DNA from: a virus | IMG/VR virus record: IMGVR_UViG_3300017758_000003 | Location: 1-64,000 of that record | DNA: 64,000 nucleotides | Reading direction: 5' to 3' (one strand) | Position numbers and translations under genes: made by a program | Shown here: positions 7,995-64,000 of the stretch, piece after piece | Layout: each line of letters opens with the position of its first letter | Position numbering within the stretch: position 1 is the first letter of the stretch | The notes under the pieces: generated by a model | Database searches by the model: none | Told to the model about the DNA's origin: nothing | The model's input: only the letters and a program-made list of their open reading frames with translations

Positions 7995-8023
7995 TGTTTT
8001 ATTTTTTATTGATTACTATATAA

Positions 8024-8054
8024 CAAAGATAACCATTATATTGTAAACACCAAA
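8024..8054 (-). promoter_or_regulatory. Bacteroidota-type housekeeping promoter
   Basis: TTTG-N19-TATCTTTG. Confidence 0.85.
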
Positions 8055-9262: not shown

Positions 9263-9264
9263 AA

Positions 9265-9538
9265 TTAAAATGTTATTTTAGTTGATACTTCATTAACAAC
9301 AGAGTACGACGACTTATTAATAGTCTCCTTTATTCTGTTAGAAAATTCCTCTCTTGTTTCTTCTTCGTGAACTTTGTCGATAGGTAGACTAATACCTAAA
9401 TTAGATATTGCAAATGGTGTTCCACTCGAAGAGTGTCCCCCAAATAACGAATACCTAATTGAACCTTCACTTAACCTACAAACTAATGTTTTAGGATTTC
9501 CGTAGACATCTTTAAGATGTAAATGTGATAACTTCATG
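9265..9538 (-). CDS. hypothetical early protein (probable start MKLSHL, approximate)
   Basis: ORF track 9265..9603; promoter 9568-9599 lies within the annotated extension. Confidence 0.55.
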
Positions 9539-9567
9539 ATTATTATTTTTAAATGATTACTAATACC

Positions 9568-9599
9568 CAAATATAATACTTTTTTCTTTATACACCAAA
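9568..9599 (-). promoter_or_regulatory. Bacteroidota-type promoter
   Basis: TTTG-N20-TATATTTG. Confidence 0.85.
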
Positions 9600-9639
9600 A
9601 CAATCTATCTTTTTTCTCTGCCGAATAGATTAATGGCAG

Positions 9640-10026
9640 TTAAGATCCCCATGTAGAAACTAAAGGATGTTCTTTTACTTTCCAATCATTACCATTAATT
9701 GTTATGGTAAATTTGTATTGTTCACTATGACCACCGATATAACTATAATCAAACCAAACATTAATTTTATTATCCCCACAAGTTACCCCTAAGTTAGTTT
9801 GAACTTCATCATTGATGAAAGGTTTCATACTATCTATATCCCAAACGAAATCAGTAATCTCATCAATCATTTCTTCTTCTTCACTTGATACCTTTACACC
9901 ATTCCACCAAAAGAGTTCTAAATCTTCAATCTCTTCATTCATAACCATACAATTGAATTCAACTCTTTTCATATTAGTGGACATACTTTTATTCAATCCA
10001 CCTGACTTTGACTTATTATTTTTCAT
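9640..10026 (-). CDS. hypothetical early protein
   Basis: 128-aa acidic ORF. Confidence 0.6.
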   Translation of the reverse strand: MKNNKSKSGGLNKSMSTNMKRVEFNCMVMNEEIEDLELFWWNGVKVSSEEEEMIDEITDFVWDIDSMKPFINDEVQTNLGVTCGDNKINVWFDYSYIGGHSEQYKFTITINGNDWKVKEHPLVSTWGS

Positions 10027-10254
10027 ACATCTAATATAACACTATTTTCTTTATACCACAACTAGTTATCTGCCAACTATAATTCGTAACAGCGAAGAGT
10101 AAGAGCAACTGATCCAGCGCACTGAGCTCGCAGATATTAATTGGCACGTGCCAAATAGAATTCACAGTGCATGATGACTATAGTCATCATTTTAGAGCAT
10201 AAAAAAAGGGAATACTTTCGTACTCCCAAATTCATATCAGATATTAGTTTGAGT

Positions 10255-11034
10255 TTACACCCGAATGAATATCTTTTTGTCAGTTCTACGTTTGAAGTTA
10301 TAGATGTCTTCAATCATACGAGAATAACTTGCCTTATCTCCACATAACTTAAAGTAGTGTGGTACTATCTCGGCTTTCTTCATAAATTCACTCATTACAA
10401 ATGACCCCTCTTTATTTTTAAAGTTTGACTTGGAATCTTCAACAGTTGAATACTTGTTAAGAACACTTAACATAGTTCTTACAAAAACTGTTCTGTAATA
10501 AATCTTAGGAGCGAACGGTTCGAGGGATAAAATGAAGTCGGCATACATTCTTGCCTTATCCATAGACCCCGCTTTAAATCTTCCCTCACTAAAGACTTCT
10601 TTCTTCATACCACTAGCAAGACCTCCCTTTAAGAATATACAACTATCAGTCAAACTAAATATTGGATACTCTTTTCTGAACTCCATAAGTTTAACATAGT
10701 TTTTATTCCCTTTACTTACGTAATGTGAAAGGTAGTCATTCTTAGACCAATTTTTCATAGTCTTATTAATTGACATCATTTCATCTTCTCCGTACTTGTT
10801 CGCAGTTATAAAGTATAGACCTTTCCCTGCGATCTTAGCCGCCTCGAATCTATGTTGTCCGTCGATAATCTGTTTTTTACGATTAACAATAATAGGAACT
10901 TTTAATAATCCCTCGTCTTCCATAGATTTTGCAATCTCCTTAATTCGAGCTTTAGACTTAACTCGATTGTGGTCCATTGGTTTGAACATTTCTAGGTTTG
11001 TGGTGTAATACACCGTGTCATTTTGATATCTCAT
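10255..11034 (-). CDS. ParB/Srx N-terminal domain protein
   Basis: NR...IAKSM...VPIIVN...IIDGQHRFEA. Confidence 0.75.
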   Translation of the reverse strand: MRYQNDTVYYTTNLEMFKPMDHNRVKSKARIKEIAKSMEDEGLLKVPIIVNRKKQIIDGQHRFEAAKIAGKGLYFITANKYGEDEMMSINKTMKNWSKNDYLSHYVSKGNKNYVKLMEFRKEYPIFSLTDSCIFLKGGLASGMKKEVFSEGRFKAGSMDKARMYADFILSLEPFAPKIYYRTVFVRTMLSVLNKYSTVEDSKSNFKNKEGSFVMSEFMKKAEIVPHYFKLCGDKASYSRMIEDIYNFKRRTDKKIFIRV

Positions 11035-11078
11035 AAATCATTATCTTTTTTAGGTGAAACATTAACTAATATCATAGA

Positions 11079-11110
11079 CAAATATAACACTAATAATGTA
11101 ATACACCAAA
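11079..11110 (-). promoter_or_regulatory. Bacteroidota-type promoter
   Basis: TTTG-N20-TATATTTG. Confidence 0.85.
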
Positions 11111-11191
11111 TAAATTCGTATTACATTAGTTAAATGTGTGCCAATTAAATTTGACCAGTCCTGAACCCAGTTCCAGTCCAGCTTAGAAAGA

Positions 11192-11268
11192 GAAAACCCC
11201 CATCATTTCTGATGAGGGTATTTCATAGTAATCACTGTAAACATTTATTGTCATGAAGATTTACAGAC
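11192..11268 (-). ncRNA. putative early small RNA A
   Basis: Promoter TTAG-N20-TACATTTG (11271-11302), 5' hairpin CTGTAAA/TTTACAG, linker TGATTACTATG, intrinsic terminator 11192-11220; no convincing ORF. Confidence 0.55.
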
Positions 11269-11302
11269 TACAAATGTACTGTGTAATTTTTTCATATCCT
11301 AA

Positions 11303-11509
11303 TTATAGGGTAACATTAACTGACGCGGTAAAGTTGTGGCTTTGCATTATTTCGCGGGATACCACCGAATGAATGGTACTTGCGACTTTTTTATATTCAT
11401 CTATTGACCAAGACGTACTTGGTGTTTTTAAATGAATCTGACCATCTTTAACCGTAAACCGAACTCTTATACTTTTCTTACTCACTTTGCTTAATAACTG
11501 ACTGAACAT
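11303..11509 (-). CDS. hypothetical early protein
   Basis: 68-aa ORF. Confidence 0.5.
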   Translation of the reverse strand: MFSQLLSKVSKKSIRVRFTVKDGQIHLKTPSTSWSIDEYKKVASTIHSVVSREIMQSHNFTASVNVTL

Positions 11510-11678
11510 ATTCTAATTTATTTATGGTGTCTACATGTTGTGAACCACGAAAACGGTTTTGTTGGTGTATCACATTGACGTGTACACCTCCACTTGGTGT
11601 GAACCCTTCCTTGATTAACGTGTTTACTTTGGTTTGTAAACCTTCGGGTGATGATGAATATACTACTTTATATTCCAT
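11478..11678 (-). CDS. small DUF1737-like protein
   Basis: YKVV...LQTKVNTLIKEGFTPSGGV...YVQSVIK; own promoter CTTG-N20-TATATTTG at 11708-11739. Confidence 0.55.
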   Translation of the reverse strand: MEYKVVYSSSPEGLQTKVNTLIKEGFTPSGGVHVNVIHQQNRFRGSQHVDTINKLEYVQSVIKQSE

Positions 11679-12187
11679 TTTAAATGTTTTATTAATGATT
11701 ACTTCTTCAAATATATAAAAAATAATTGATTATATCAAGTCTTTCTGTAAAAAAATTTGTGATCTGGACCGTCCCAGGTCAATTTTATTTGGCAACAGTG
11801 CCAATTAGAATGTGAGATGGAGACTGAACCGTCGGGTGTGGACTAATAAAACCGAAAGAAAATGTGCCGATTACATTACTTGATACCAATTCACCTTCAG
11901 AAAAAAATCAAAAAAAGTTTGGAACATCAGAAAAAAGTTCGTGAATTGGATACCCATTCTAAAATCTAATTGGCAGACAATCGACTCTATACCTGGAGAA
12001 GAAGGATTCGTTTCGACGTGCACATCTATACATTTTAGTTGGCGGGATCATGCCAATTAGATTTAAGCCAGGCAGCTGTCATAAAAGTTGACCACCTATT
12101 TCTATAAAACAAGAAAACCCCCACAAAAAGTGGGGGTCTCACAGACTAACCAAAACAATGTGTCACTTAAGACACTCACACAACAAA

Positions 12188-12511
12188 CTAAATTTCTACC
12201 ATATTACTAAAGTCTCTATGGATATCAATTGGAACTTCATAGGTCTTACCATTCTTTGGATGTTTCCAAACTTCGGTTTCCCCACAATATTTTTCTTCTA
12301 AAAATTCTAAACCTAATGGGTTACTTTCTTCATACATCTTACGTATTACATTTTCAAAGTTTACCATCTTTTGTTTTATTTTCTTACCTGCAAAGTCTTT
12401 ATACTTAAATTCAACTTTGTATTTCTTCTCGAACTCTTGTACACAAGATGCATTATAGTTACTTGAATATACTTGAGTGAATACTTCCACCATTTCGTTA
12501 GTCCATTCCAT
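12188..12511 (-). CDS. hypothetical early protein
   Basis: 107-aa ORF. Confidence 0.6.
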   Translation of the reverse strand: MEWTNEMVEVFTQVYSSNYNASCVQEFEKKYKVEFKYKDFAGKKIKQKMVNFENVIRKMYEESNPLGLEFLEEKYCGETEVWKHPKNGKTYEVPIDIHRDFSNMVEI

Positions 12512-12513
12512 AA

Positions 12514-12747
12514 TTAATCAGTTACATATATTACATCCGATGTCTTTTCATCTTGGTAGTACATCGACCCACCATCATTTCCTTCATCATCTGATTGAGG
12601 AATTAAAATTGTTCCATCAGTAAATTCTATTACTACGGGTCTCTTATACCACATAAGGTTTTCCATATCCTTATCTCCCAACCACTTTACTGATTTAATC
12701 GTTTTACCTTTTAGGTACTTGTTGAATTGTTTTAAATGTTTGTCCAT
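12514..12747 (-). CDS. hypothetical early protein
   Basis: LKGKTIKSV...PQSDDEGNDGG; promoter CTTG-N19-TATCTTTG at 12775-12805. Confidence 0.65.
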   Translation of the reverse strand: MDKHLKQFNKYLKGKTIKSVKWLGDKDMENLMWYKRPVVIEFTDGTILIPQSDDEGNDGGSMYYQDEKTSDVIYVTD

Positions 12748-12805
12748 TACAATATTTTTAAATGATTACTTATTCAAAGATATAAAACTTTTTCTATTAT
12801 ACAAG

Positions 12806-13000
12806 TTAATATTCATCTTTTTTCCTGCCGTTTAAAATCGAGGATACCTTCTTGAGTTTCTCTTTGAATTCTTCTACCATACATTCTTCATCAACAACTA
12901 CCTTATCCTCATCATCATAGAAGTAGTACACTGGAATACTTATAAAATTCTTATCACTGGTTGACCTACTGGTCAAATAATTATCTTCGTTGTTTATCAT
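12806..13000 (-). CDS. hypothetical early protein
   Basis: 64-aa ORF. Confidence 0.55.
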   Translation of the reverse strand: MINNEDNYLTSRSTSDKNFISIPVYYFYDDEDKVVVDEECMVEEFKEKLKKVSSILNGRKKDEY

Positions 13001-13386
13001 AATTCTTTTATTGCTTGCCCATTAAAATATCCACATGTCACGGGGATCTTTCGTGGGTTGGATATGAAGTATGTAATACACCACCAAAACTTTTCTAATT
13101 GTGTATTACATTCAAAGGGCTTTACTCCCTCTGCAGTTGATAACGTAATATGTGGGAATTTATTAGACGAATCTCCACCTTTAACTAATAGACAATCTAC
13201 TTTCTCATCAGTATATCTTCCGATAACTTCAAGCTTAAGTTTCTTACCAATCTTTAAATCGTCTATGTCTTTGGGACGGAAGTCGATCGTTTGGTGATGG
13301 TAAAAGTGATTGGCATGTTTCGGTGGGAAGAGTTTTTTCAAACTCTCAACCTCATCTACAAAATATCCACTATAAATTACATTCAT
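12997..13386 (-). CDS. 2H phosphoesterase family protein
   Basis: Two HxT motifs (HHQTIDF, PHITLS) followed by AEGVKP. Confidence 0.65.
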   Translation of the reverse strand: MNVIYSGYFVDEVESLKKLFPPKHANHFYHHQTIDFRPKDIDDLKIGKKLKLEVIGRYTDEKVDCLLVKGGDSSNKFPHITLSTAEGVKPFECNTQLEKFWWCITYFISNPRKIPVTCGYFNGQAIKEL

Positions 13387-13397
13387 TGTATTACATT

Positions 13398-13628
13398 TTA
13401 TCTAAGGAGTGTAACAACACTTCCAAATTCAAATTCAAACTCACTAACTAAATGTTCGTAGTCTCCTGATGTCATACGTTTAATCATCTTATCGATGTTA
13501 CTTGGTGACATTCCGATTTCTCTACCTAAACGTTTTGCGGTGCCCATTAAAAAGTAGGCATTCCCGTCAGGTCCTGTTAAATCGATTTCAATTCCCCTTG
13601 TGGGCATTTCTGATTTTAACTTTATCAT
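13398..13628 (-). CDS. conserved small phage protein
   Basis: IDLTGPDGNAYFLMG...MTSGDYEHL. Confidence 0.65.
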   Translation of the reverse strand: MIKLKSEMPTRGIEIDLTGPDGNAYFLMGTAKRLGREIGMSPSNIDKMIKRMTSGDYEHLVSEFEFEFGSVVTLLR

Positions 13629-13942
13629 TATTTTTTATTTAAGTCGGTTAATTTAATCCATCCTTCCTTGATTCCTTTCCTGCATTGTTCAGTTCCCATT
13701 CCTAAGAATTCACCTCTATATTTAGAAGTAGTCCTTGAATAGTTCCAATAGTGCTCATCGAATACATACTTAGGTCTTCGTTCATTACCATTACCATATC
13801 TATCAAAAGACCTATAACAAATCTTCGTTCCATAAGATACGAACGTTTCCCCGTGGGGGTCCGACATAATACATTGATTGGCAGAAGGGTTACCACCTCG
13901 TGTGGTCATTGGTTTTACATTTACAAATTGAGATAATCTCAT
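13628..13942 (-). CDS. conserved small phage protein
   Basis: FVSYGTKIC...WNYSRTTSKY; promoter TTTG-N20-TATATTTG at 13972-14003. Confidence 0.65.
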   Translation of the reverse strand: MRLSQFVNVKPMTTRGGNPSANQCIMSDPHGETFVSYGTKICYRSFDRYGNGNERRPKYVFDEHYWNYSRTTSKYRGEFLGMGTEQCRKGIKEGWIKLTDLNKK

Positions 13943-14048
13943 AATTACTTTTTTTATTGATTACTAATATTCAAATATAACACTTTTTTCTTTATATACC
14001 AAATAAAAGTGTGCCGATCAAAATCCTTGATGGGCCCTGATTCCTATC

Positions 14049-14276
14049 CTATGATAACATCTCGACATTTAATTCTTTTACGAGTTCCCTAACTTGTTCT
14101 TGGGTTAATTGAATATGTGCATGTGGTAATCCGTATTTGTCTACGTCGGGTTGAATATTAATTTGCACCATAACACCATTCTCTCCACCACTAAAGCGAG
14201 TTAATTTAATTTCTGATTCGTTGTAACCAAAATCCGTTTCCTTACGACCTTTGATTGTTTTTAGTTCTGTTGACAT
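14049..14276 (-). CDS. hypothetical early protein
   Basis: 75-aa ORF with own promoter-like element. Confidence 0.6.
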   Translation of the reverse strand: MSTELKTIKGRKETDFGYNESEIKLTRFSGGENGVMVQINIQPDVDKYGLPHAHIQLTQEQVRELVKELNVEMLS

Positions 14277-14599
14277 AATTTATATTTTGTATAAAGATAT
14301 GAAACTTTTTCTATTATACCAAATTTAAGTTATCTATGTTTGCCAATTACATTACTTGATACCCATTCCCGCGGAGGGTTCTTTACCAGGTGCAGCTGCA
14401 GTTTTTTAACTGGTGAAGTTGCATGGTCCTAGCAATGATTTTAATTGGCAAAAGATTTACTCTGATAATCAACAAGTTACGTTCCCTAATAGTATGGCAT
14501 GTTGTGCTAGGTGATCACAGCGCTGGTCCAGTATGGATTATAATTGGCACAAGATCGTACAGAAGACTGGCGAACATGTCTTCAAGAAACTTATCGGCA

Positions 14600-14680
14600 T
14601 AAAAAAACCCCCACCATTTCTGATAGGGGTTAATTTTCGTTTCACATAAATAGACCGATTAAACCTTTGGTTTAACCTAT
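14600..14680 (-). ncRNA. putative early small RNA B
   Basis: Promoter TTTG-N20-TATATTTG (14684-14715), 5' hairpin GTTAAACC/GGTTTAAT, linker, terminator 14600-14631; no ORF. Confidence 0.6.
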
Positions 14681-14853
14681 GAACAAATATATAACACTAT
14701 TATATAATAAACAAACTCTTTATAGTGTTATTTTATGTGCCGATTAATATCTGACCTGAGACACGGGTGATGAAACGAACGAGAAGTTCGTATAATAAAA
14801 AAACCCACTCTGTGAGAAGTGAGTTTTATTTGGTCTACTTATGTTCGATATTA

Positions 14854-15093
14854 TCAACTTGCAATTAACGAATATCTATTCATACTTTCTAATTCGACAT
14901 CATATCCAAAACCAATTCGGTTTGTAATACGTTGTCCAAGTCCTCGAGTACATTGAATTTCTTCTAATGGTGTACCAAGATGTTTTTTAACGAATTTATT
15001 TAAATTGTTTACGTTGAAGTGATGTTTACATCTACTATTATCAACGATAGTAAGGGTGTACCCCCTACGAGTTTTTGTTAGGTAACCTTTCAT
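14854..15093 (-). CDS. hypothetical early protein
   Basis: 79-aa ORF between promoter and terminator. Confidence 0.65.
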   Translation of the reverse strand: MKGYLTKTRRGYTLTIVDNSRCKHHFNVNNLNKFVKKHLGTPLEEIQCTRGLGQRITNRIGFGYDVELESMNRYSLIAS

Positions 15094-15360
15094 GACATTT
15101 TATTTTAGTGATTAACATACCACCAATGTAATACATTCTTTTTATATAACCAAATTAATGTGATACTTTTTTATTAACAAAGTTATTAGAGTCTAATTTA
15201 TCTTCCCCTGCAGGTCCTAGATATTCTATTCGGCAGATCCTGCCAATTAGTTTGAAGTTATTTTTATTTAAGTTTATTTTATTTTTTATTTTTCGAGTAT
15301 AAAAAAACCCCTCTCTTTCGAGGGGGGTAATTAACAAGTAACAGAAAAGTTTGAAAACTA

Positions 15361-15837
15361 TTACTCTATTTCATACTTAACACCTTTGTAAGTTATACTT
15401 TTTATGTTGTCAAGTTTGATAGTCATAACATTGACATCACGACTTTGGTAAGTCGGTAAGTAGGTTTCAAAATCATCTTTAAAAATTTCGTTCCCATTAA
15501 ATTCGTAGTCATTAGAAGTATGGACATTTTCAAACCCCTCAATCATTAGGTATTTGTTATCGTTGTTTCTATGTTTAACTACACAATCTGAAATGTGTTC
15601 AAACCAATTTTCTTTTACCTCAAAAGTAGGGTTGGTTTTTTGTTTCCTTTTTTCATAATCGGGTAACAAACGAACATTCTTTTTTGATGTTTTAAAAACC
15701 TTATCAAAATAAGGGTTGTTTTTTTTGTTCATCTTTACTTTGGTTAAAGTAACCAAGTTAATGAAATCTCCTTTTTCAAAAGAAGTTGTCAATCTCTCAA
15801 GTTCATTTTGATTGATTGTTGATACTGATTTTTTCAT
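15361..15837 (-). CDS. hypothetical early protein
   Basis: 158-aa ORF; promoter 15870-15901; terminator ~15300-15328. Confidence 0.7.
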   Translation of the reverse strand: MKKSVSTINQNELERLTTSFEKGDFINLVTLTKVKMNKKNNPYFDKVFKTSKKNVRLLPDYEKRKQKTNPTFEVKENWFEHISDCVVKHRNNDNKYLMIEGFENVHTSNDYEFNGNEIFKDDFETYLPTYQSRDVNVMTIKLDNIKSITYKGVKYEIE

Positions 15838-16285
15838 AATTTGTTTTGTTTTATGTGATTAACTATACTCAAATATAACACTTTTTATCTGTTACAACAA
15901 AATATAATGAAGTTTTTTTTATATTTCTCTGCCGACTAATTTGTCAAGAGACCCACTGTCCGTCGTCTACTTGAAGTAGATGAGATGTACGGGTAACATT
16001 TCATTGGGCAGTGCCGATTACATTAGGGAAGGATGCATGGTGAAGGTTTCATTGGGCAGTGCCAATTAGATTAAGACAGGGACGGTGAACCTTCAGTCGT
16101 ATTAGGGAATAAAAAAACCCCCACAATTTCTGCGGGGGAATCAAAACAAATTAACTAAACTAACTACTAAACATTCCAAACAATACTAACGATTGTTCTT
16201 ATCACAAAGTAAGAGAACGACAAACCAATTATCCACCAACATAAGTTGTCAAATTTATCACTCTCTAACCAAGTGGTTATTTTTT

Positions 16286-16477
16286 CTAATTTCTCTTCCA
16301 TGATAATCTATACTTTTGAATTTGAAATTTAACGTATGAATACAAACAATATACTAAGGTTGAATAGAACATTACCAAACAAGTTGCCCAAAAACCAAAC
16401 AACAATAACATTCCAATTCCATTTTCATTCGTTTCTAAAACGAATATGTCTACTAACGATTTAATACTTTCTAACAT
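16286..16477 (-). CDS. small membrane protein, first gene of the early module
   Basis: Hydrophobic segment; promoter TTTG-N19-TATATTTG at 16514-16544. Confidence 0.55.
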   Translation of the reverse strand: MLESIKSLVDIFVLETNENGIGMLLLFGFWATCLVMFYSTLVYCLYSYVKFQIQKYRLSWKRN

Positions 16478-39776: not shown

Positions 39777-39822
39777 AGTTCTCGTTTTACTATAAATATG
39801 TTGATAGTTAGGTTATGTTTGG

Positions 39823-54878: not shown

Positions 54879-57086
54879 ATGAAATTATTAGACGTATTAA
54901 CCGAAAGTAATAAAGAAGTTGAAGAACAACTACAAGGTATTCTTAGAGGTGCCGCGAAAAACATATCTAAAGTAAAGGGAGCTATAGATGATGTTGTAAA
55001 ATTTGCACTTAATTCAGGTCAAGTTATTAAAAATGTAGATGGTGTTGCATTAGCAACATCTGATGACATTATAAAAGCGATGAAAGCGGGAACTTTAGGT
55101 TCTACGGGAGCATCTCAATTAGCATCTGGATTACTCAAATCAAACAGGTTACCTAAAGACATACAAAGAACATTAGTTAATGAAATTGCTGCGGGGTCTA
55201 AATTTCAGAAAGTCGTTGGTAGTGTTAAATCTGAGAAAGCATTAAAAACAAGACTCAGTAAAAAAGGTTATACTGCAGAGACTATCGAACTTATGATTGG
55301 TAGGGCTAAAGACCAAAAGATTGGTCCTTTTGCAGTAGTAAGTAAGGTTAAACCTAAAGTAAAGACAACCACAACAAAGAAAGCCACAACGACTACCAAA
55401 GCAACCACTACCAAGGCAGCAACAACAGGTACGAGTACAGTAAGTAAAAAATTAGATGATATTCTTGCCGCCCTAACGGGTACCGCTAAGAAGTCGGGTC
55501 AGGGTCAAAGAATATTAAAGTCTGCAAATAGATGGAAAAATTCTAAACTTGGAAAAGGTTTAGTTGGTGTTGTTACGAGAGTTGGATCTTTTGCACTCAT
55601 CAAGAATTTACTATGGTTATTACTAATTGCGGGTGTTGGAGGATACATTATTTCAAAAATGTGGAAAAACTTTTGGTCTGAGGGAGATCCAATCCCATCT
55701 GATGACGATTTGATACCAGTAAACGATTGGCTTGAATGTATTGTAACACCTTTAGGTGATGACGCAAATGCAGAGATCATCGAACAAAATGGTGTAGCAG
55801 TAAAATATAAAATTGATAAGTTTGGTGGTAAAGAAACAGGTGGTCATGTAATTTTCACACCTGACTATAGAGTGAAGGCGGCGAACGGTATTGAAGGTAC
55901 TTGGTCTTGTAACCAAACAGGTTTAGAGGAATCAATCAATGAACAAGGATTAAGTGGAATTGGTGATTCAAACTCATCTAATTCAAACTCATCTAATTCA
56001 GATTCATCTAAAATTGAGATATCAGCGAAAGATATGAGTAGAGCCATAGACAGTATTGAAGACAACTTAAGTGGTGATTATTTAGAATCAGATTCTACAG
56101 ACCTTAAAGACGCTTATAATATCGTAAAAGGTTTACAAAACAGATCATATAAAGGTAGAGATGCCATACGTGTACTTATTAAGAATTACCCAAAAATTAA
56201 GGGTAAAGAATTAGGTACTCACATATTAGAACTTGAAAACTTAGATTTTGAAGCAACTGAAATAAGAGACGAACTTTTAAGTTTACTTGGATATTCAGTA
56301 GAAAAAAGTGGTGGTAACGATGATTCATCTAATAAGAAAGGTGATTCTGATGGTGGTGATGGAAACCCTAAAACAGGTTTATCACATATTACAGTTGTAT
56401 GGGATGGTAAAGATGGTGGAGGAAAAGGAAAAGGTATTAAGTATGTACCATGTGATAGTTTCCCATTCAAGATCGGATGTATCAGTGATAAAATTAAAGA
56501 CGTTCAAAAATGTGCTGGTGATTTAAAGGTGGATGGTTATTATGGACCAAAGACTGATGCAAGACTTGCCAAAGTTATAATTGGTTATTCTAAAACAATT
56601 ACAAAAAAGAGTTATGATAAAATAACAAAAGAATGTAAAGGTAAAAAGTCTGACGGTGTTACTAAATTGAAGGCAGTTGATCCTGTAAAAAAGAGAGAGA
56701 AACTTACTAAGATCACACCATTAGAAATACAACCTATTGTATTACCAAAATTAGACATAGAAAAAATGATCAAGGTTCATGGACCTGAGAAGTTAGAGAA
56801 TTACATTCAAAAAACTATTGACGGTAAACGAATAAAAGATATCATTGATAATGAGGTAAAATTCAGAGGTGGAAGGTTCATATTGAAATTGAAAGAAGAA
56901 CTTACTGAGAAACAGTTAAAGGCAATAAATTACTATTTTGCATCAAAAGGTTTCAGTTTAGATAAAAAGAAAGAAACCCTTAAACAAGGAAAGTATGTTT
57001 GGAAGGCGGAGACATCAACCGCAAGAAGAATTGCAAGAAAGGAATTATCAATTGAGAAACTAAAAGACAAGCAAAATGAAAATTAA
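54879..57086 (+). CDS. large putative virion protein (TM, low-complexity, PG-binding-like motif)
   Basis: MKLLDVLTE; TM LLWLLLIAGVGGYII; LKVDGYYGPKT. Confidence 0.7.
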   Translation: MKLLDVLTESNKEVEEQLQGILRGAAKNISKVKGAIDDVVKFALNSGQVIKNVDGVALATSDDIIKAMKAGTLGSTGASQLASGLLKSNRLPKDIQRTLVNEIAAGSKFQKVVGSVKSEKALKTRLSKKGYTAETIELMIGRAKDQKIGPFAVVSKVKPKVKTTTTKKATTTTKATTTKAATTGTSTVSKKLDDILAALTGTAKKSGQGQRILKSANRWKNSKLGKGLVGVVTRVGSFALIKNLLWLLLIAGVGGYIISKMWKNFWSEGDPIPSDDDLIPVNDWLECIVTPLGDDANAEIIEQNGVAVKYKIDKFGGKETGGHVIFTPDYRVKAANGIEGTWSCNQTGLEESINEQGLSGIGDSNSSNSNSSNSDSSKIEISAKDMSRAIDSIEDNLSGDYLESDSTDLKDAYNIVKGLQNRSYKGRDAIRVLIKNYPKIKGKELGTHILELENLDFEATEIRDELLSLLGYSVEKSGGNDDSSNKKGDSDGGDGNPKTGLSHITVVWDGKDGGGKGKGIKYVPCDSFPFKIGCISDKIKDVQKCAGDLKVDGYYGPKTDARLAKVIIGYSKTITKKSYDKITKECKGKKSDGVTKLKAVDPVKKREKLTKITPLEIQPIVLPKLDIEKMIKVHGPEKLENYIQKTIDGKRIKDIIDNEVKFRGGRFILKLKEELTEKQLKAINYYFASKGFSLDKKKETLKQGKYVWKAETSTARRIARKELSIEKLKDKQNEN

Positions 57087-57726
57087 TATAGATAACTTAG
57101 TTAAACAGACCTTAAATGAGAGGTACGAATTAAATAATAAATTCAAACTCATTTTAGAGAATGAAGAAACTAACGACGATGGTAAGTTTGATGATGTTGT
57201 GGATGCACTTGCCGATTTAGAAGGAATGGGTAAGAGTGATGATGAAATCGAAGGTTCTTTAGATGAAGGTATTACTGATTTCTTATCTCAGTATATTTCA
57301 CCAGGTGGTGACAACGCATCTGATTCCGAAGGTAATTCTTTATCAAAGGGGGATCTGAAAAATAAAGTTAGTAGTGGTTTAATGTCACAAATACGTGAGT
57401 ATATTATTAGAAAACTATTAGGTATGGTTGGATTCACTGGTGATTTACGTGATGCTGTAGCAGCTGCACTTGCAGATTTAAATTTGGGTGATGTATTAAT
57501 TGTGTTCAAAGGACAAGAAAGTTGTAAAAAACATGGAGATAAATTAGCCGATGCATTTATGGAAGGATTATTTGTATATGTTTCGGGTGGTGCAGAAAAA
57601 AATTCAGCAGCAGCCAACTTCCTAAGACAGGTTGGTGGTGAGTATTTGAAAGGTACTAACTTTGGGGAGATGTTGGCAGATTCTATCTGTGGTATGAACC
57701 TTAGAAGTAAGTTGAAAGTTAATTAA
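57076..57726 (+). CDS. putative virion protein
   Basis: TLNE, ILE, LDE motifs; operonic. Confidence 0.65.
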   Translation: MKINIDNLVKQTLNERYELNNKFKLILENEETNDDGKFDDVVDALADLEGMGKSDDEIEGSLDEGITDFLSQYISPGGDNASDSEGNSLSKGDLKNKVSSGLMSQIREYIIRKLLGMVGFTGDLRDAVAAALADLNLGDVLIVFKGQESCKKHGDKLADAFMEGLFVYVSGGAEKNSAAANFLRQVGGEYLKGTNFGEMLADSICGMNLRSKLKVN

Positions 57727-57807
57727 CATTCACAAAAAAATCTGTTCAAAAAAATGTTAAATACCCTGTTGATTCGGGGTATTTTTTTTATCTAAAAGAT
57801 ATTTATA

Positions 57808-57917
57808 GTAAGAGATTGGGATTTTGGTCGATCCACAATTGATAAACGAGAACAAAACAAAAGGAGGTGTAATCTAATATCTCGGCAAAGGGGTCATATG
57901 ACCTCTTTGTTCGTTTT
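57808..57917 (+). ncRNA. putative late small RNA 1 (contains AAAGGAGGTGT)
   Basis: TATTTAT at 57800-57806, 5' hairpin, G-U-containing terminator hairpin 57883-57911, no ORF. Confidence 0.55.
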
Positions 57918-57970
57918 ACACTTCAGAGTTTAGCATAAAAAAAATGAACCATTTTCACAGTTCATTTTAG

Positions 57971-58353
57971 TGGAGGTGGAGGGTTTCGAACCCTCGTCTT
58001 GCTAGTCCCAACTATAGAGGACTACACGTTTAGGATAGTATTTTCTAATACTCCAAAATTTGATGACCATTTTTTAACTATTGTGATCAACACCCAATAG
58101 ACCATTCGATTTTGGGTTCAATGGTAATCCACCTTTTTAGGAGTTTCTGTTTCTAGGTATTTCACTCTCTAACCCATTGTAGTAATAACCTTAGGATACT
58201 GCTACTTTAGAATCAACAGATACTAGACCCATTAATTCCATTTGTGAATAAACGTCTCCGTTTAAAAATATTCTCCATAGATTTAAGTGATAGGAAACAT
58301 CTCACTACGTGCCCTGTTATAATTGATTACTCCAATCAATTCCAGTCACCCCC
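57971..58353 (-). ncRNA. ssrA: tmRNA
   Basis: 5' GGGGGTGACTGGAATTGA; 3' GACGAGGGTTCGAAACCCTCCACCTCCA; G3-U acceptor wobble; 383 nt; tag frame 58259-58191. Confidence 0.9.
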
Positions 58354-58355
58354 AA

Positions 58356-58535
58356 TTATTTTACCTCTTTTATAAGATCTTTTGTTGGTTTCTTAGGTGA
58401 TTTTGGTTTAGAACCACCACCTGATGTCTTTTTTCTTGGTTTTCTGTTTGGTTTTGGTTTAGAAACCACTACAGGTTTCACCTCTTCCTTTTTGATACCA
58501 AAGAGTTTTTTAAAAAAGTCGATAATTTTTTTCAT
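58356..58535 (-). CDS. small Lys/Pro-rich protein (59 aa)
   Basis: MKKIIDFFKKLFGIKKEEVKP...; TATTTAT upstream. Confidence 0.6.
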   Translation of the reverse strand: MKKIIDFFKKLFGIKKEEVKPVVVSKPKPNRKPRKKTSGGGSKPKSPKKPTKDLIKEVK

Positions 58536-58589
58536 AATTTTAGTTTGTTTTTAGATAAATATACTGTTATATGTGTTAATTGTAAATCT

Positions 58590-59315
58590 TTATTTTGTTG
58601 GTACATACTCGACTATTGAGGGAGACTCAGTGTTAATAGGGTTTTCACCTTGACAATTTAGTGGAAAATGTTTCTCATATAACGCCTCAAAAAATAGTTT
58701 GTTTTTTAACCATTTTTTATCAGTTTCACCAATAGACTTATGATAGAGTTTAATTTTAGTTGTTACACCAATCTTTATACCTTCAATATAATTTAAAAGA
58801 CATATTGGTAGATCATAAAAGTGAAACCCTTCAAATTGAGGGTCAAAGTTATGTTTAATTCTTTTTTTATGTACCATCATAAATAACCCGTCAATTACTA
58901 CGACATCTTTGATTGTGTCCCCAAACGATTTAGAATAATTAGACATGTATTTTTTTGGTCCATTGATATGACCCACCTGACCTTGCATTGATTCTCTATC
59001 TTTCCACCATTGTCCTGAAATAAGTTTATCTGTTCCCGCAATTCCTAAAATACCATATTCGGGATTTTTGTTAAACAACTTTAAGATTTTAGGTGTAATG
59101 TTTTTGGTTTCAAACTCTAAATCATCATGAATGAATACAACAACATCGTTTGATGATTTTTCTAATCCTTCGTTATATATGTCTGATAAAGATCTTTCAC
59201 CATTATTTTCATAAACCAAATATTCATTTTTTGGGTGTGAGAAAAACTTCTTTACATGACTTAAATAATCTTGATCTATTTTTCTTGTTGAGTAAACTAC
59301 GGTAATTGTATTCAT
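58590..59315 (-). CDS. GT2-like glycosyltransferase
   Basis: YNEGL, VFIHDDL, GILGIAG, IDGLFM, FHFYD. Confidence 0.75.
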   Translation of the reverse strand: MNTITVVYSTRKIDQDYLSHVKKFFSHPKNEYLVYENNGERSLSDIYNEGLEKSSNDVVVFIHDDLEFETKNITPKILKLFNKNPEYGILGIAGTDKLISGQWWKDRESMQGQVGHINGPKKYMSNYSKSFGDTIKDVVVIDGLFMMVHKKRIKHNFDPQFEGFHFYDLPICLLNYIEGIKIGVTTKIKLYHKSIGETDKKWLKNKLFFEALYEKHFPLNCQGENPINTESPSIVEYVPTK

Positions 59316-59342
59316 GTAGTAATAATAAATAAAAAACTACAA

Positions 59343-59531
59343 TTAATCAACTTCTTTTTTCTCCTCGATAAGTTTATTAAGTTCTTCTTGTGTGAAAGTT
59401 ACTGCAAGATTCATATCCCAATCCTTATCAGACTCTGAAAATCTTTTTTCTACTCTCTTTCTTAATATGGACAAAACTCCGAGGTCATGTGCTCGATGGT
59501 ACAATTCTTCATAAAAATCACTATTTGTCAT
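59343..59531 (-). CDS. hypothetical protein
   Basis: 62-aa ORF. Confidence 0.5.
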   Translation of the reverse strand: MTNSDFYEELYHRAHDLGVLSILRKRVEKRFSESDKDWDMNLAVTFTQEELNKLIEEKKEVD

Positions 59532-59569
59532 TGAACTAGTTTTTAAGTGTTTTATAAATACATCAAAAA

Positions 59570-59947
59570 TTAAACTCTATCATAGTCATCCTCTACTCTT
59601 ATAATATCATCTTCACCGAAGTAATCACCTGTTTGAACTTCTATAAATTCAATAATCTCATCAGTTTCATTTATCGCTCTGTGTCTACCCCCTAAAGGTA
59701 TTCTTATACTTTCACCGTAAGATCTAAATATCTTTTGGTCGTCTAATATTATCGATAGTTCACCTTTAATTACTGTCCATGATTCCCTTCTTCTTAAGTG
59801 GTATTGATATGAGAGTTTAGAATTGGGGTTTATTCTTATATGTTTTACTTTAACATTTTCGTTTTCAAATAATATTGTATAGTCACCCCACGGGCAATCA
59901 ACTTTTGATTTGTCTACACCTTTCCACTTTATATCTATCATATTCAT
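59570..59947 (-). CDS. cupin, mannose-6-phosphate isomerase type II C-terminal-like
   Basis: PWG.Y, LSYQYH..RRESW, IEVQTGDYFGEDDIIR; start at 59947 or 59941. Confidence 0.85.
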   Translation of the reverse strand: MNMIDIKWKGVDKSKVDCPWGDYTILFENENVKVKHIRINPNSKLSYQYHLRRRESWTVIKGELSIILDDQKIFRSYGESIRIPLGGRHRAINETDEIIEFIEVQTGDYFGEDDIIRVEDDYDRV

Positions 59948-59961
59948 AAATATACCTTGGG

Positions 59962-60038
59962 TTGGGAAGATGGGGATTGAACCCATATGTAACCAATTAC
60001 TCTTTCTACTGCGTATAAGACAGAGGAGATACTTCCCA
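59962..60038 (-). tRNA. atypical D-armless tRNA-like RNA, anticodon UAU (Ile?)
   Basis: Acceptor TGGGAAG/CTTCCCA, T arm ATGGG-TTCAATC-CCCAT, anticodon loop CTTATAC, no D arm. Confidence 0.55.
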
Positions 60039-60044
60039 ATATAG

Positions 60045-60123
<79 letters not shown>

Positions 60124-60209
60124 TACCGAAGGACGGACTCGAACCGTCACGGACATTACTGTCCAAGGGATTTTAAGTCCCTCGTGTCTACCAATTCCAC
60201 CACTTCGGC
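60124..60209 (-). tRNA. tRNA-Leu(UAA)
   Basis: AGGGA-CTTAAAA-TCCCT, long variable arm. Confidence 0.95.
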
Positions 60210-60321
60210 ATGGTGTAAATGTATGAACCAAATTATTTAGAATCAACCCCCCACCCCATATAAACAAAAAAACCCCACATTTCTGTGGGGTTTACTATCA
60301 TTCTTTAACGTTTATTTTTGA

Positions 60322-60645
60322 CTATTCAGTCAACAACTGTTTAGATGTTTTTACGGGTTCACACCCATCTTTATCGATCTTAGTTAACCTATTCTCGAAC
60401 TTATCAAATCTACTGTCAATGTGACGATATAGATTATCAATTTGATTGTTGAGGTCTTTCACCTCACCATCCACCCTAAGGTGGATCTCTCTTTGATTAT
60501 TGTCTAAATCTAATTGTGTTCCATTTATGACTTCCTCGAAATCATTGGAACGTTGTTTAACCTTAAATATACCTACTATAGCATACCCTAAACCGAGCAC
60601 ACCAATTGATGTAAACATACCTAAAACGAATTCTAAATTTTCCAT
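60322..60645 (-). CDS. single-TM coiled-coil protein
   Basis: N-terminal TM, heptad tail. Confidence 0.65.
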   Translation of the reverse strand: MENLEFVLGMFTSIGVLGLGYAIVGIFKVKQRSNDFEEVINGTQLDLDNNQREIHLRVDGEVKDLNNQIDNLYRHIDSRFDKFENRLTKIDKDGCEPVKTSKQLLTE

Positions 60646-60688
60646 AATTTATAATTTTAATTTAATTTATGTCAAAGAACGATAGTTG

Positions 60689-60760
60689 TACTCCGTAGGA
60701 GAATCGAACTCCTATTACCAGGATGAAAACCTGGCGTCCTAACCGTTAGACGAACGGAGC
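60689..60760 (-). tRNA. tRNA-Glu(UUC)
   Basis: CCAGG-TTTTCAT-CCTGG. Confidence 0.95.
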
Positions 60761-60869
60761 ATCTGTCTAAAATAAATAATAAGAAATATAATTTAGATAA
60801 TCAATCCCATAGTTCCGACTATTTATATATTAGGGTGAATGACCCATTAAAAAAGTAAAAATAAAAATT

Positions 60870-61112
60870 ATGGCATTTAAAGACTTATTTAAAGACGAAA
60901 ACGACATTAATGAAAAATCTGTCGTTGGATTTGCATCATTTGCAATTATGACTTTGTTCGCACTTGCAGATTTACTTACAGGGTATTTTGGTACAGACCT
61001 TGTAATCAATGAGTTTATCTATAACTCATTCGTAGTTATTACATTAGGTTCTTTTGGTATTGCTGAAGTTGGTAAAATCTTTGGTAAAAAAGGACAAGAA
61101 GGACAAGAATAA
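60870..61112 (+). CDS. holin-like two-TM protein
   Basis: Two TM segments, directly upstream of the endolysin. Confidence 0.55.
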   Translation: MAFKDLFKDENDINEKSVVGFASFAIMTLFALADLLTGYFGTDLVINEFIYNSFVVITLGSFGIAEVGKIFGKKGQEGQE

Positions 61113-61122
61113 AAAACAAAGA

Positions 61123-62004
61123 ATGATTTTAAAAATTGGATCAAGAGGAAAAGAAGTCAAAGAACTTCAAGAATTTCTTGAAATCGGAGCGGATGGTGTC
61201 TTCGGTTCAGGAACTGAATCTGCAGTTAAGAAATGGCAGTCCGAAAATGGTTTGGGGAGTGACGGTATTGTCGGTCCTGCCACTTGGGATGCTATGGGTA
61301 TTGCTACTACTGATAATTCAGAAAAAATATATGAAACGGAAAATGGATTGATTGTTAATAGACATCTTTTACCTGTGGGGGAATATAAACAAGGTCCCAC
61401 AAATAAAGAATATGTTTTCATACACCACACAGCGGGGTGGCATAATCCATATAATTGTATTGACCAATGGGCCAGAGATACTAGAGGTGCGGTAGCCACT
61501 GAATTTGTATTAGGTGGTCCGTCCGTAAAAGGTAACGACACTAAATATGATGGAGAAATGGTACAATGTATACCCGAGGGTGGATACGGTTGGCATTTAG
61601 GAAAAAATGGTTCACGACACATGCACACACACTCAGTTGGTATCGAGGTTTGTAACTTCGGTTGGGTTAAGAATGGTAAAACATACGCAGGTACAAGAGT
61701 ACACGAAAGTCAATTAGTTACACTTGACCAAGAGTTTAGAGGACACAAAACATGGCATCGTTATTCTGATACACAAATAGAATCACTAAGAAAGTGGATT
61801 TTATGGGTTGGTGAGAGAGATTCAATAGATGTTCGTAAAGGTTTACCTGAATCAATTAAAAAAATTGGTGTCTCCGCATTTGAATTTAATGAAGATGCAT
61901 ACTACGGTAGAATCAAAGGGTTATGGACCCATACTAACACTCGTAAAGATAAGGTTGACATGTTCCCACAAAAAGAGTTGGTAGACATGTTAGTTAGTTT
62001 ATAG
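61123..62004 (+). CDS. endolysin: PG-binding domain + N-acetylmuramoyl-L-alanine amidase
   Basis: LKIGSRG..ADGVFG..DGIVGPATW; IHHTAG, WHLG, SVGIEVCN, HTN..KVD. Confidence 0.85.
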   Translation: MILKIGSRGKEVKELQEFLEIGADGVFGSGTESAVKKWQSENGLGSDGIVGPATWDAMGIATTDNSEKIYETENGLIVNRHLLPVGEYKQGPTNKEYVFIHHTAGWHNPYNCIDQWARDTRGAVATEFVLGGPSVKGNDTKYDGEMVQCIPEGGYGWHLGKNGSRHMHTHSVGIEVCNFGWVKNGKTYAGTRVHESQLVTLDQEFRGHKTWHRYSDTQIESLRKWILWVGERDSIDVRKGLPESIKKIGVSAFEFNEDAYYGRIKGLWTHTNTRKDKVDMFPQKELVDMLVSL

Positions 62005-62006
62005 GG

Positions 62007-62114
62007 CAAAAATAAACCCCAACAAGGATTGCTGGGGTTTTAGGTCTTCAACGGTTTCAACACCATTGATTAACGAGAAAAACGAGAAGGTTATCGGCAA
62101 AGAGAACCTCTGAT
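62007..62114 (-). ncRNA. putative late small RNA 2, partly antisense to RNA 1
   Basis: TATTTAT (minus) at 62117-62123; three hairpins whose G-U pairs work only on the minus strand; terminator 62007-62040. Confidence 0.55.
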
Positions 62115-62154
62115 GTATAAATATATATAAAAATCAAAAAAGTTACGATATCTC

Positions 62155-63999
62155 CTAAATTAGGGGTAAATTTCCTAAAAAAGTTAAAGAATCATTTTCG
62201 TACTTGATCTCCACTGTCGTGTTTTCTACAATTTGACCTAATAAAATTTGATCACTTATAAAGTCTTCACACATATTTTGTATAATTCTCCTAATAGGTC
62301 TTGCACCATATTCCTCTTCAGAATTTCTTGAAAGAATTTCCTTATACACTGTTGGATGAAATTTTATATTGTAATTCTTATCTCTCAATCTACTCTTCAA
62401 TTTGTTCATTTCGATAGTGACAATCTTCTTCAAAGACTTATTATCTAATTTATTGAATACGATTATATCATCAACCCTATTGAGAAACTCAGGACTAAAT
62501 TGTTGTTTCAAAGATTTTCTAATTATAGAGTCTTTAACCTTTTCTCTATTAGTTCCATCGTCAAAACCTACACCACTACCAAAATCAGCAACTTTTTTAG
62601 CACCGATATTAGATGTCATGATTATTAAAGTATTTGTAAAGTTTACTTTTCTACCGAAAGAATCAGTTAAATGTCCTTCGTCCAAAATTTGAAGTAATAA
62701 ATTAAAAACGTCTTTATGTGCCTTTTCAATCTCATCAAATAGTATAACAGAGAAAGGATTGTTTTTAATTTTTTCTGTTAATTGACCACCTTCATCATAA
62801 CCAACATACCCTGGTGGAGAACCAATTAGTTTTGATAAATTATGTTTCTCCATAAACTCACTCATATCAACCCTGATTATTTTTTCGGGATCATTGAATA
62901 GTGTTTCGGCTAAAGTTTTTGCGAGGTAAGTTTTTCCCACCCCCGTTGAACCTAAGAACATGAATGACCCAATCGGTCTATTAGAACCTCTAACACCAAC
63001 TCTATTTCTTCTTATCGCTTTAGAGATTGTTGCGATGGCATCGTGTTGTCCGATAACCTTTTTCGTTATGTGGTTCTCTAAATTGAGTAAGTTTTTAGAT
63101 TCTTTAGTATCGAGTTTATTGATGGGTACACCAACAGTATCACTTATCATTTCGTAAACATCATCAATATCGATAGGTTTCTTATTTTGTTTTTGTTCTT
63201 CATTCCATTTCCTTTTCTCAGTTTCCAATTTTTTGAGGACGTTCTTTTCTTGATCTCTTAGATTTGCCGCCAGTTCATAGTTTTGGTCTTTAACTACTTC
63301 AAGTTTCTGAAGTTTAATGTCTTCCGCATTTTTTTTCAATTTTTCTATTGAGTCAGGAACTTTCACAGTAATTTTCTTTTCAGAACCCAACTCGTCTAAT
63401 ATGTCAATTGCCTTATCGGGAAATTGTTTGTCTGTTATATATCTCTTTGATAATTTGACTATGGTTTCAATAACACCTTTAGTATATAAGACCCTATGAT
63501 AATCCTCGTAAGATAATTTTAAGTTCTTTAATATTTCAGTAGTCTCATCAGATGTTGGTTCTCTAAGGATAATTTTTTGGAATCTTCTAACCAACGCACC
63601 ATCTTTCTCAATGTTCTTTTTAAATTCATCGAAAGTGGTTGCCCCAATACATTGTATTTCACCTCGGGCTAATGCGGGTTTAAGTATGTTTGCTGCATCC
63701 ATAGAACCTGAAGCATTACCTGCACCCACCATCGTGTGTAATTCATCAATGAATACAATTACGTTTGGTGCATCTTCTAATTCATTTAGTATTGCCTTGA
63801 TTCTCTCCTCGAATTGTCCACGGTATTTTGTTCCCGCAACCAATGCCGTTAGATCAAGTGCCATAATCCTCTTATCTAACAAGTTAGTTGGACAGGTACC
63901 TTCTGTTATCATAATTGCCAATTTTTCAACAAGTGCGGACTTACCGACACCCGCTTCACCGACAATAACAACATTATTTTTCTTTTTCCTTGATAGGAT
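62155..63999 (-). CDS. clpC: ClpC-type AAA+ chaperone (5' end outside window)
   Basis: GEAGVGKS and GSTGVGKT Walker A motifs, GTKYRGQFEER, UVR middle domain (QNYELAANLRD), GVGF ClpP-docking loop, GARPIRR. Confidence 0.9.
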   Translation of the reverse strand: MLSRKKKNNVVIVGEAGVGKSALVEKLAIMITEGTCPTNLLDKRIMALDLTALVAGTKYRGQFEERIKAILNELEDAPNVIVFIDELHTMVGAGNASGSMDAANILKPALARGEIQCIGATTFDEFKKNIEKDGALVRRFQKIILREPTSDETTEILKNLKLSYEDYHRVLYTKGVIETIVKLSKRYITDKQFPDKAIDILDELGSEKKITVKVPDSIEKLKKNAEDIKLQKLEVVKDQNYELAANLRDQEKNVLKKLETEKRKWNEEQKQNKKPIDIDDVYEMISDTVGVPINKLDTKESKNLLNLENHITKKVIGQHDAIATISKAIRRNRVGVRGSNRPIGSFMFLGSTGVGKTYLAKTLAETLFNDPEKIIRVDMSEFMEKHNLSKLIGSPPGYVGYDEGGQLTEKIKNNPFSVILFDEIEKAHKDVFNLLLQILDEGHLTDSFGRKVNFTNTLIIMTSNIGAKKVADFGSGVGFDDGTNREKVKDSIIRKSLKQQFSPEFLNRVDDIIVFNKLDNKSLKKIVTIEMNKLKSRLRDKNYNIKFHPTVYKEILSRNSEEEYGARPIRRIIQNMCEDFISDQILLGQIVENTTVEIKYENDSLTFLGNLPLI

Positions 64000-64000
64000 C

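Follow-up and report, generated by a model that had tools for sequence, protein, structure and literature searches.

The first 64,000 nucleotides (nt) of the IMG/VR virus record IMGVR_UViG_3300017758_000003, referred to here as the window, carry two loci, RNA1 and RNA2. These are probably independently promoted genes for small non-coding RNAs (sRNAs) on opposite strands, whose transcripts influence each other through base pairing, a reading to which we assign a probability of roughly 60%. At the level of sequence, comparison between relatives established the gene-like anatomy of the loci, their polarity, structure and complementarity, and covariation between the two. The window is part of a 78,043-bp contig with a CheckV completeness of about 25%. 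The contig was present in marine metagenomes from at least 14 studies, and its relatives were marine and lake jumbo-phage contigs, 269-335 kb for the large ones. Synteny searches combined with pattern scans yielded 65 unique homologues of RNA1 and about 90 of RNA2. A first scan, with the pattern AACGAGAA...TCGGCAAAG, gave mostly chance matches, and only L038 and L066 were real. The features of both loci and their surroundings are listed in Table 1.

Both loci are headed by the promoter-like motif TATTTATA. The contig holds 28 copies of it, 22 of them non-coding, and 17 of the 28 lie at most 60 nt upstream of an ATG on the same strand. Read in reverse orientation, three of the 28 lie within 60 nt of an ATG, which indicates that the motif is oriented. 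No open reading frame (ORF) follows the copies at 57800 (+) and 62123 (-). The motif often ends 2-5 nt before an ATG (e.g., at window positions 26548, 34650 and 23272), which points to leaderless or near-leaderless mRNAs with a start site very near the motif.

The predicted fold of RNA1 on the plus strand had an energy of -33.0 kcal/mol (z -4.4 against shuffles; opposite strand z -2.7), and that of RNA2 on the minus strand -33.3 kcal/mol (z -4.9; opposite strand z -1.5). In the relatives, alternations between G.U and A-U pairs in terminators and hairpins were compatible only with RNA1 on the plus and RNA2 on the minus strand. The 5' arm of the RNA1 terminator varied only between A and G, opposite an invariant, U-containing 3' arm. 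Such changes give A-U or G.U pairs on the plus strand and a mismatch on the minus strand. In an alignment of 21 sequences, hairpin P1 of RNA1 kept 8 of its 10 pairs through two-sided changes. The invariance of the P1 loop is partly an effect of ascertainment, because the loop was in the search patterns. All five pairs of hairpin H2 of RNA2 were kept through two-sided changes, and two independent G.U wobbles were possible only on the minus strand. These compensatory and strand-specific wobble changes indicate that RNA1 and RNA2 are selected, structured RNAs of opposite polarity. The oriented motif, the z scores and the wobble changes agree with an earlier, sequence-only reading of the window (the first-pass annotation), which had assigned each RNA its own promoter and terminator on opposite strands. 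Hairpin P3 of RNA1 is less secure, because its changes were one-sided only: GAGG, GAGA and GGGG all pair with UCUC. AAACGA at 57844-57849 is a possible alternative partner of the tail of the RNA1 terminator. The T-run shortly before the promoter motif of RNA1 is the U-tract of the terminator of the preceding ORF.

Neither RNA matched a family of Rfam 15 at the gathering score. With E values up to 5, the sole overlap was a chance-level match of rnk_pseudo on RNA2 (20 bits, cut-off 55). Of the comparisons that the first-pass annotation had suggested, the one with Rfam named no family, and the one across related phages revealed covariation. A type I toxin-antitoxin locus was considered and rejected: the only frames present were of 8-11 codons and differed among the relatives compared by eye.

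Table 1 Features of the RNA1 and RNA2 loci and of neighbouring genes. Coordinates refer to the window unless a contig is named.
Feature	Position	Strand	Remarks
Terminator of upstream ORF (57076-57726)	57759-57784	+	Compensatory changes in relatives
TATTTATA promoter-like motif of RNA1	57800-57807	+	Conserved in all RNA1 homologues
RNA1, about 105 nt, no ORF	57813-57917	+	Ends deduced from motif and terminator
RNA1 hairpin P1	57815-57839	+	Loop UUUGGUCG at 57823-57830
Block A	57838-57852	+	Complementary in 14/15 positions to RNA2 62079-62065; strong in the window's sub-clade only
M2	57854-57864	+	A-rich, ends in AAAAGG; complementary to RNA2 CCUU(C/U)UCGUU
Shine-Dalgarno-like tract AAAGGAGGUGU (AAAGGAGGTGT in DNA)	57860-57870	+	Complementary to ACACCUCCUUU of the 16S 3' tail
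Hairpin P3 (GAGGUGU/AUAUCUC)	57864-57883	+	Sequesters the tract core in the lowest-energy fold
M3, UCGGCAAAGGGG	57882-57893	+	Complementary to RNA2 hairpin loop; overlaps 5' arm of RNA1 terminator
RNA1 terminator	57886-57917	+	Hairpin 57886-57909 and U-rich tail
Phage transfer-messenger RNA (tmRNA) gene	57968-58353	-	RF00023, 68.6 bits, model positions 1-374 (full length); convergent with RNA1
Endolysin gene (PG_binding_1 and Amidase_2)	61054-62004	+	Convergent with RNA2 in the window's sub-clade
RNA2, about 100 nt, no conserved ORF	62007-62111	-	Ends deduced
RNA2 terminator	62014-62040	-	Abuts 3' end of endolysin gene; G.U/A-U alternation fits minus strand
RNA2 hairpin H2	62049-62068	-	Conserved loop GUUGAA
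RNA2 5' hairpin H1	62084-62111	-	Loop CUCUUUGCCGAU at 62104-62093
TATTTATA promoter-like motif of RNA2	62116-62123	-	Upstream of 95/96 unique RNA2 homologues
clpB/clpC-like AAA+ gene	62155-64000	-	Pfam AAA_2, AAA_lid_9, ClpB_D2-small; runs off the window
GOLLD RNA loci of distant relatives	L421:5084-5493, L474:9798-10203, L435:4059-4461, L441:1-358, L452:6024-6360, L426:1-240		

Complementarity and covariation between RNA1 and RNA2

The first-pass annotation had noticed that positions 57838-57890 and 62065-62102 resemble each other on the plus strand, and this similarity exceeded that of shuffled sequences. The stretch ATTGATWAACGAGAA is identical in 14 of 15 positions between 57838-57852 and 62065-62079. 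It is followed in the same order by TCGGCAAAG, identical in 9 of 9 positions between 57882-57890 and 62094-62102 and found nowhere else in the window (0.07 expected). Local alignment of the loci scored 48, compared with 29.5 ± 4.9 and a maximum of 46 for shuffles, and homology between the loci extends over about 110 nt of the plus strand.

Complementarity of the two transcripts, also proposed earlier, was conserved across many phages, in two blocks, both complementary in almost every genome pair. In M3, RNA1 UCGRCAAAGGG faces the RNA2 loop CUCUUUGYCGA; the match between the RNA2 loop and the 5' arm of the RNA1 terminator, first seen in the window, holds well beyond it. In M2, RNA1 AACGAAAAGG faces RNA2 CCUUUUCGUU, with a perfect 10-mer in most relatives and an imperfect one in the window. 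M2 reaches into the 5' half of the Shine-Dalgarno-like tract. On RNA2 the two blocks are 2-3 nt apart, and on RNA1 they flank the Shine-Dalgarno-like hairpin, which is bulged out. A third candidate contact (M1, RNA1 loop UUUGGUC with RNA2 GACC(U)AAA) was discarded, as it had only 4-7 bp and inconsistent complementarity.

Covariation was assessed in 30 genomes, in which RNA1 and RNA2 were matched by contig. At the variable M3 position, the pairs were G-C in 8 genomes, G.U in 8, A-U in 14 and A.C in none (Fisher's exact test, p = 0.0027, uncorrected for relatedness). For the other ten M3 positions, pairing held in 26 or more of the 30 genomes. On a tree calculated with the M3 positions masked, the three states require at least six changes, among them A-U versus G-C within a single clade of good support and, in the other clade, repeated switches between A-U and G.U. 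The covarying position of the H1 loop was C or U, rarely A. In the wider RNA2 family, collected by a scan that left the loop out of its pattern, most sequences had U as the loop base, and those of the window's clade had C. Two rare loop variants, CUUUGACGA and CUUUGUCGU, came from fragmentary contigs without the tmRNA region, and no RNA1 partner was found there. Overall, the complementarity looks to be maintained by covariation, as in a trans-encoded sRNA/anti-sRNA pair.

If the RNAs did not interact, the loci could be diverged copies of one segment, for example of terminator-rich intergenic DNA, and their complementarity would be inherited. Their homology on the plus strand and the modest gain from cofolding (below) are in line with this. 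However, compensatory changes occur in both RNAs across very divergent genomes, and A.C is avoided though the DNA copies differ in the G.U genomes. We consider an absence of interaction exceedingly unlikely. Copying between the loci and a shared DNA-binding site were likewise rejected: the eight G.U genome pairs differ at the DNA level, so neither explains the pattern.

Several results limit the case for mutual pairing. The covariation concerns one position and few independent events. The M3 changes in RNA1 do not disturb its own terminator stem either, and the change in the RNA2 loop is the only one specific to an intermolecular model. The cofold gain of seven cognate pairs was -6 to -13 kcal/mol, only modestly larger than with shuffled partners (means -4 to -10 kcal/mol), and one pair was beaten by its best shuffle. 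Cofolding, a check proposed in the first-pass annotation, gave a gain in each case. The gain is modest because both monomers are stably folded. RNAduplex was replaced by cofolding, as it gave inflated whole-length duplexes with the full-length RNAs. Block A, the 14/15 match stressed in the first-pass annotation, is present in the window as described, but it is conserved only in the window's sub-clade and is weaker in G001-type relatives. Finally, RNA-library contigs (four runs, recorded or guessed as RNA; contig data) covered the tmRNA, tRNAs and parts of genes between 57700 and 62200 and not RNA1 or RNA2, a result that is uninformative for RNAs of 100 nt.

Under the preferred reading, two sRNAs that pair, the 5' hairpin loop of RNA2 (CUCUUUGYCGA) would contact RNA1 UCGRCAAAGGG first. 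Pairing would then extend into RNA2 CCUUUUCGUU and RNA1 AACGAAAAGG, giving about 23 bp that are nearly continuous on the RNA2 side, and the Shine-Dalgarno-like hairpin of RNA1 would be left bulged out of the duplex. On RNA1, such a duplex would take up the 5' half of the tract as well as the terminator's 5' arm. Because both would be occupied, RNA2, or a clpB-like mRNA carrying RNA2 as its 3' end, could mask or titrate RNA1, or vice versa. We infer from these comparative data that the two genes are transcribed, that their products pair in the cell and that one of them regulates the other. Alternatively, as the first-pass annotation had also offered, RNA1 and RNA2 may be the halves of a two-piece structured RNA.

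Other targets of RNA1 and RNA2 in the contig were sought by blastn-short, which returned only chance-level matches of 9-13 nt. At window positions 39778-39799 (-), the motif TATTTATA is followed by GTAAAACGAGAACT and then by an ATG. The 10-mer AAACGAGAAC in this stretch is identical to a part of RNA1 and complementary to RNA2 UUCUCGUU. RNA2 might target the mRNA that starts here, or the match could be due to chance.

The Shine-Dalgarno-like tract of RNA1

Of all parts of RNA1, the Shine-Dalgarno-like tract is most likely to be its payload. It resembles the extended site of rpsU, the gene for ribosomal protein bS21. The predicted pairing of the tract with the 16S rRNA tail GGAACACCUCCUUUCU was -13.6 kcal/mol or stronger in 65 of 65 RNA1 homologues (median -18.1, best -23.3), compared with averages of -9.9 kcal/mol for shuffled RNA1 and -8.1 kcal/mol for windows of its own genome. 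In many distant homologues the match to the tail is 13-14 nt long (AAAGGAGGUGUUC). By the same method, four rpsU sites of Flavobacteriaceae gave -17.6 to -21.9 kcal/mol, and one of them reads GAAAGGAGGTGT. As the presumed 16S 3' end we take the string GCGGCTGGAACACCTCCTTTCT, with reference to the oligo ACCUCCUUUCU of PMC7797042. It matched at least 120 stretches and, among the matches listed, nearly all were Bacteroidota genomes.

In the window, the first-pass annotation had found no start codon at a suitable distance behind AAAGGAGGTGT (57860-57870). The same was true throughout the family, as none of the 65 unique homologues had an ATG, GTG or TTG 4-13 nt behind the tract. Because neither a start codon nor a bS21 ORF follows, RNA1 would be a mimic of rpsU initiation regions and not a member of them. 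The tract is altered in some clades (GGAGAGUG, GGGGGU). The rpsU site of Polaribacter ponticola (L649) reads GAAGGGAGGUG and resembles AAAGGGAGGUAU, the RNA1 variant of L449. RNA1 variants might track variants of the host rpsU or 16S rRNA. They do not match the alternative anti-Shine-Dalgarno AUCUCAUU of Chryseobacteria, which was rejected as their counterpart.

In ribosomes of Bacteroidia, the anti-Shine-Dalgarno is hidden under bS21, bS18 and bS6 (PMC7797042). In Flavobacterium johnsoniae, rpsU is the one gene with an obvious extended Shine-Dalgarno site, to which ribosomes without bS21 bind, and on which they initiate faster (PMC7797042, PMC9976891). Among phages of Bacteroidetes, genomes of up to 331 kb carry a bS21 gene, which is expressed late (PMC9723584). 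The contig itself also encodes bS21, a point that the first-pass annotation had left to be checked: the gene (65 aa, PF01165, locus L525) lies outside the window at 73796-73936 on the minus strand of the same contig (G000). It has a TATTTAT motif just upstream and no Shine-Dalgarno site. Four relatives (G004, G014, G015 and G016) encode bS21 as well.

The earlier proposal of a ribosome-binding decoy with an antisense antidote can be built on these observations, as an elaboration compatible with the pairing of the two sRNAs. RNA1 would be a start-codon-less copy of the extended Shine-Dalgarno site or leader of the host rpsU, and it would capture the 16S 3' tail set free on 30S subunits without bS21. 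The feedback loop of the host bS21 would be dampened while the phage bS21, made without a Shine-Dalgarno site, takes over ribosomes. RNA2, made behind the clpB-like gene, would cover the tract as a co-evolving antisense off-switch. The proposal has gained in plausibility. Pairing with the tail is stronger than the control averages in all homologues and matches host rpsU sites in strength; no start codon follows the tract, and GGAG-type sequences are rare in phage genes; bS21 is encoded by this phage and four relatives. As would suit an antidote, the block complementary to RNA2 extends over the 5' half of the tract, and the published use of the rpsU site by bS21-less ribosomes and the existence of bS21 phages (PMC7797042, PMC9976891, PMC9723584) fit as well. 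On the other hand, the conservation of the tract has alternative causes, as it is partly explained by pairing with RNA2 (AAAAGG) and by hairpin P3 (GAGG/UCUC). The tract varies in some clades, its core is base-paired in the lowest-energy fold, and the host is deduced from promoter and Shine-Dalgarno usage. Since RNA2 pairing and P3 make their own demands on these bases, and since some clades have altered them, ribosome binding by RNA1 is a deduction, and we hold the decoy as a tentative possibility.

The rarity of Shine-Dalgarno sites in this phage was pronounced: GGAG-type sequences stood upstream of only 2-5 of 121 phage genes. In window positions 7500-16300, genes form a block with TAnnTTTG, the Bacteroidota (host-type) promoter element, upstream. 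Over most other parts of the contig, TATTTAT stands before genes. The two gene blocks with different upstream motifs suggest two transcription programmes. A Bacteroidota host is deduced from promoter and Shine-Dalgarno usage only, because phage genes rarely carry a Shine-Dalgarno site and because of the TAnnTTTG block. A tblastn search with the clpB-like protein against isolated phages gave no relatives informative for the host.

The tract could also be part of a protein sponge. It would pair with an anti-Shine-Dalgarno-like stretch, either ACCUCUUU of RNA1 itself or ACCUUUUCG of RNA2, and the helix, as a mimic of the Shine-Dalgarno/anti-Shine-Dalgarno duplex, would bind bS21. By inspection, AAGGAGGU can form 8 pairs with ACCUCUUU in the 3' arm of the RNA1 terminator. 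The phage encodes bS21, and a precedent exists in stem P6 of OLE RNA, a mimic bound by bS21 (PMC12054373). However, the helix competes with a terminator stem of 10-12 bp, it was predicted by no fold, and it showed no covariation, and we regard the sponge as doubtful.

Genomic context

In 136 of 139 RNA2 loci, a clpB-like gene on the same strand directly precedes RNA2. In the window, no terminator was scored between the two. The first terminator after the clpB-like gene is that of RNA2, which would end read-through transcripts too. Because it keeps its own promoter motif and is positioned behind this gene, RNA2 could be made as a short RNA and could also form the 3' end of the clpB-like mRNA. 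The true partner of RNA1 might then be the clpB-like mRNA with RNA2 as its 3' untranslated region, and RNA1 would control the stability or 3' processing of this message. The conserved position behind the stop codon and the shared terminator favour such a role. Against it, the retention of TATTTATA in 95 of 96 unique RNA2 homologues points to a separate short transcript as well, and read-through from the gene is an assumed step; we judge this version rather unlikely.

RNA1 converges with a tmRNA gene, which was missed by ARAGORN. The window, all near relatives checked and three near-complete distant genomes share this arrangement. A strict motif detected it at 31 of 62 loci; of the other loci, ten were tested and nine had it. 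In a marine metatranscriptome, a 370-nt contig was identical to 57976-58345, which fits expression of the tmRNA as a discrete RNA. The acceptor stem of the tmRNA is GGGGGUG/CACCUCC, with a G3.U70 pair. As for its tag, the usual ending ...ALAA was seen in none of the frames. Pairing of RNA1 GGAGGUG with the 3' acceptor CACCUCC was rejected: there was no covariation, and in G014 and G016 the acceptor reads CAUCUCC with RNA1 unchanged.

RNA2 could also be an antiterminator acting in trans. By occupying the terminator of RNA1, it would let RNA1 run into the tmRNA gene and yield antisense tmRNA. In favour, 7-8 nt of the terminator's 5' arm belong to M3, and the convergence with the tmRNA is conserved. 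Yet the gap between RNA1 and the tmRNA ranges from about 40 to 1200 nt, the tmRNA's own terminator hairpin lies between them, and antitermination in trans at an intrinsic terminator would require pairing during transcription. We think this very improbable.

RNA1 and RNA2 were both present in near-complete genomes of 269-316 kb. The distance between them is 4-10 kb in the window's clade and, as estimated from a few contig ranges, about 15-25 kb in distant genomes. Between them, at 60044-60760 (-) of the window, lies a tRNA cluster (Arg-TCT, Leu-TAA, Glu-TTC). The positions of this cluster were covered by RNA-library contigs with a few mismatches, probably from other organisms. In distant relatives, a GOLLD RNA (RF02032, 194-327 bits) was located a few kb from the RNA1/tmRNA locus, and one of these contigs also carries a group I intron (L426:1942-2158). 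The window had no GOLLD match.

Comparison with known systems

The sRNAs of lytic and jumbo phages are barely charted, and here two of them occur across a large marine and freshwater clade. The literature search found no paper describing such an RNA pair. The two conserved RNAs appear to regulate each other. Because the clade carries bS21, a tmRNA and a Clp-type ATPase, the pair sits among genes that act on host translation and protein quality. If the tract engages the 16S tail, this would be a new viral way to act on ribosome heterogeneity, and the role of phage bS21 and the use of bS21-free ribosomes would become testable in vitro with the tools available for F. johnsoniae.

Pairs of an sRNA and an anti-sRNA (sponge) are known, such as SroC with GcvB and the prophage-encoded AgvB with GcvB. 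The likeness lies in two trans-encoded sRNAs with extended, conserved complementarity and presumed mutual titration, and in the position of one partner (here RNA2) at a protein gene's 3' end. Unlike in those pairs, RNA1 and RNA2 are both phage genes, have the same promoter motif and are homologous to each other in antisense. Their proposed pairing is deduced from covariation.

The DapZ type comprises sRNAs derived from 3' ends that have their own promoter. At the sequence level, RNA2 resembles it in lying just behind the clpB-like stop codon, in the terminator it would share and in its own motif. In contrast to the DapZ type, its conserved partner is another small RNA and not a set of mRNAs.

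In OLE RNA, stem P6 mimics a Shine-Dalgarno/anti-Shine-Dalgarno duplex and binds bS21 (PMC12054373). RNA1 is similarly a non-coding RNA with Shine-Dalgarno-like and anti-Shine-Dalgarno-like stretches in a bS21-related system. It differs from OLE, a 600-nt RNA of Bacillota, in having no homology of sequence or structure, and the fold predicted for RNA1 does not contain the mimic helix.

With the rpsU region of Flavobacteriia, RNA1 shares an A-rich AAAGGAGGUG(U) tract of 10-13 nt with a pairing energy in the rpsU range (PMC7797042, PMC9976891). Unlike that region, it has no start codon or ORF: its tract lies inside a terminated 100-nt RNA and overlaps the block that is complementary to RNA2.

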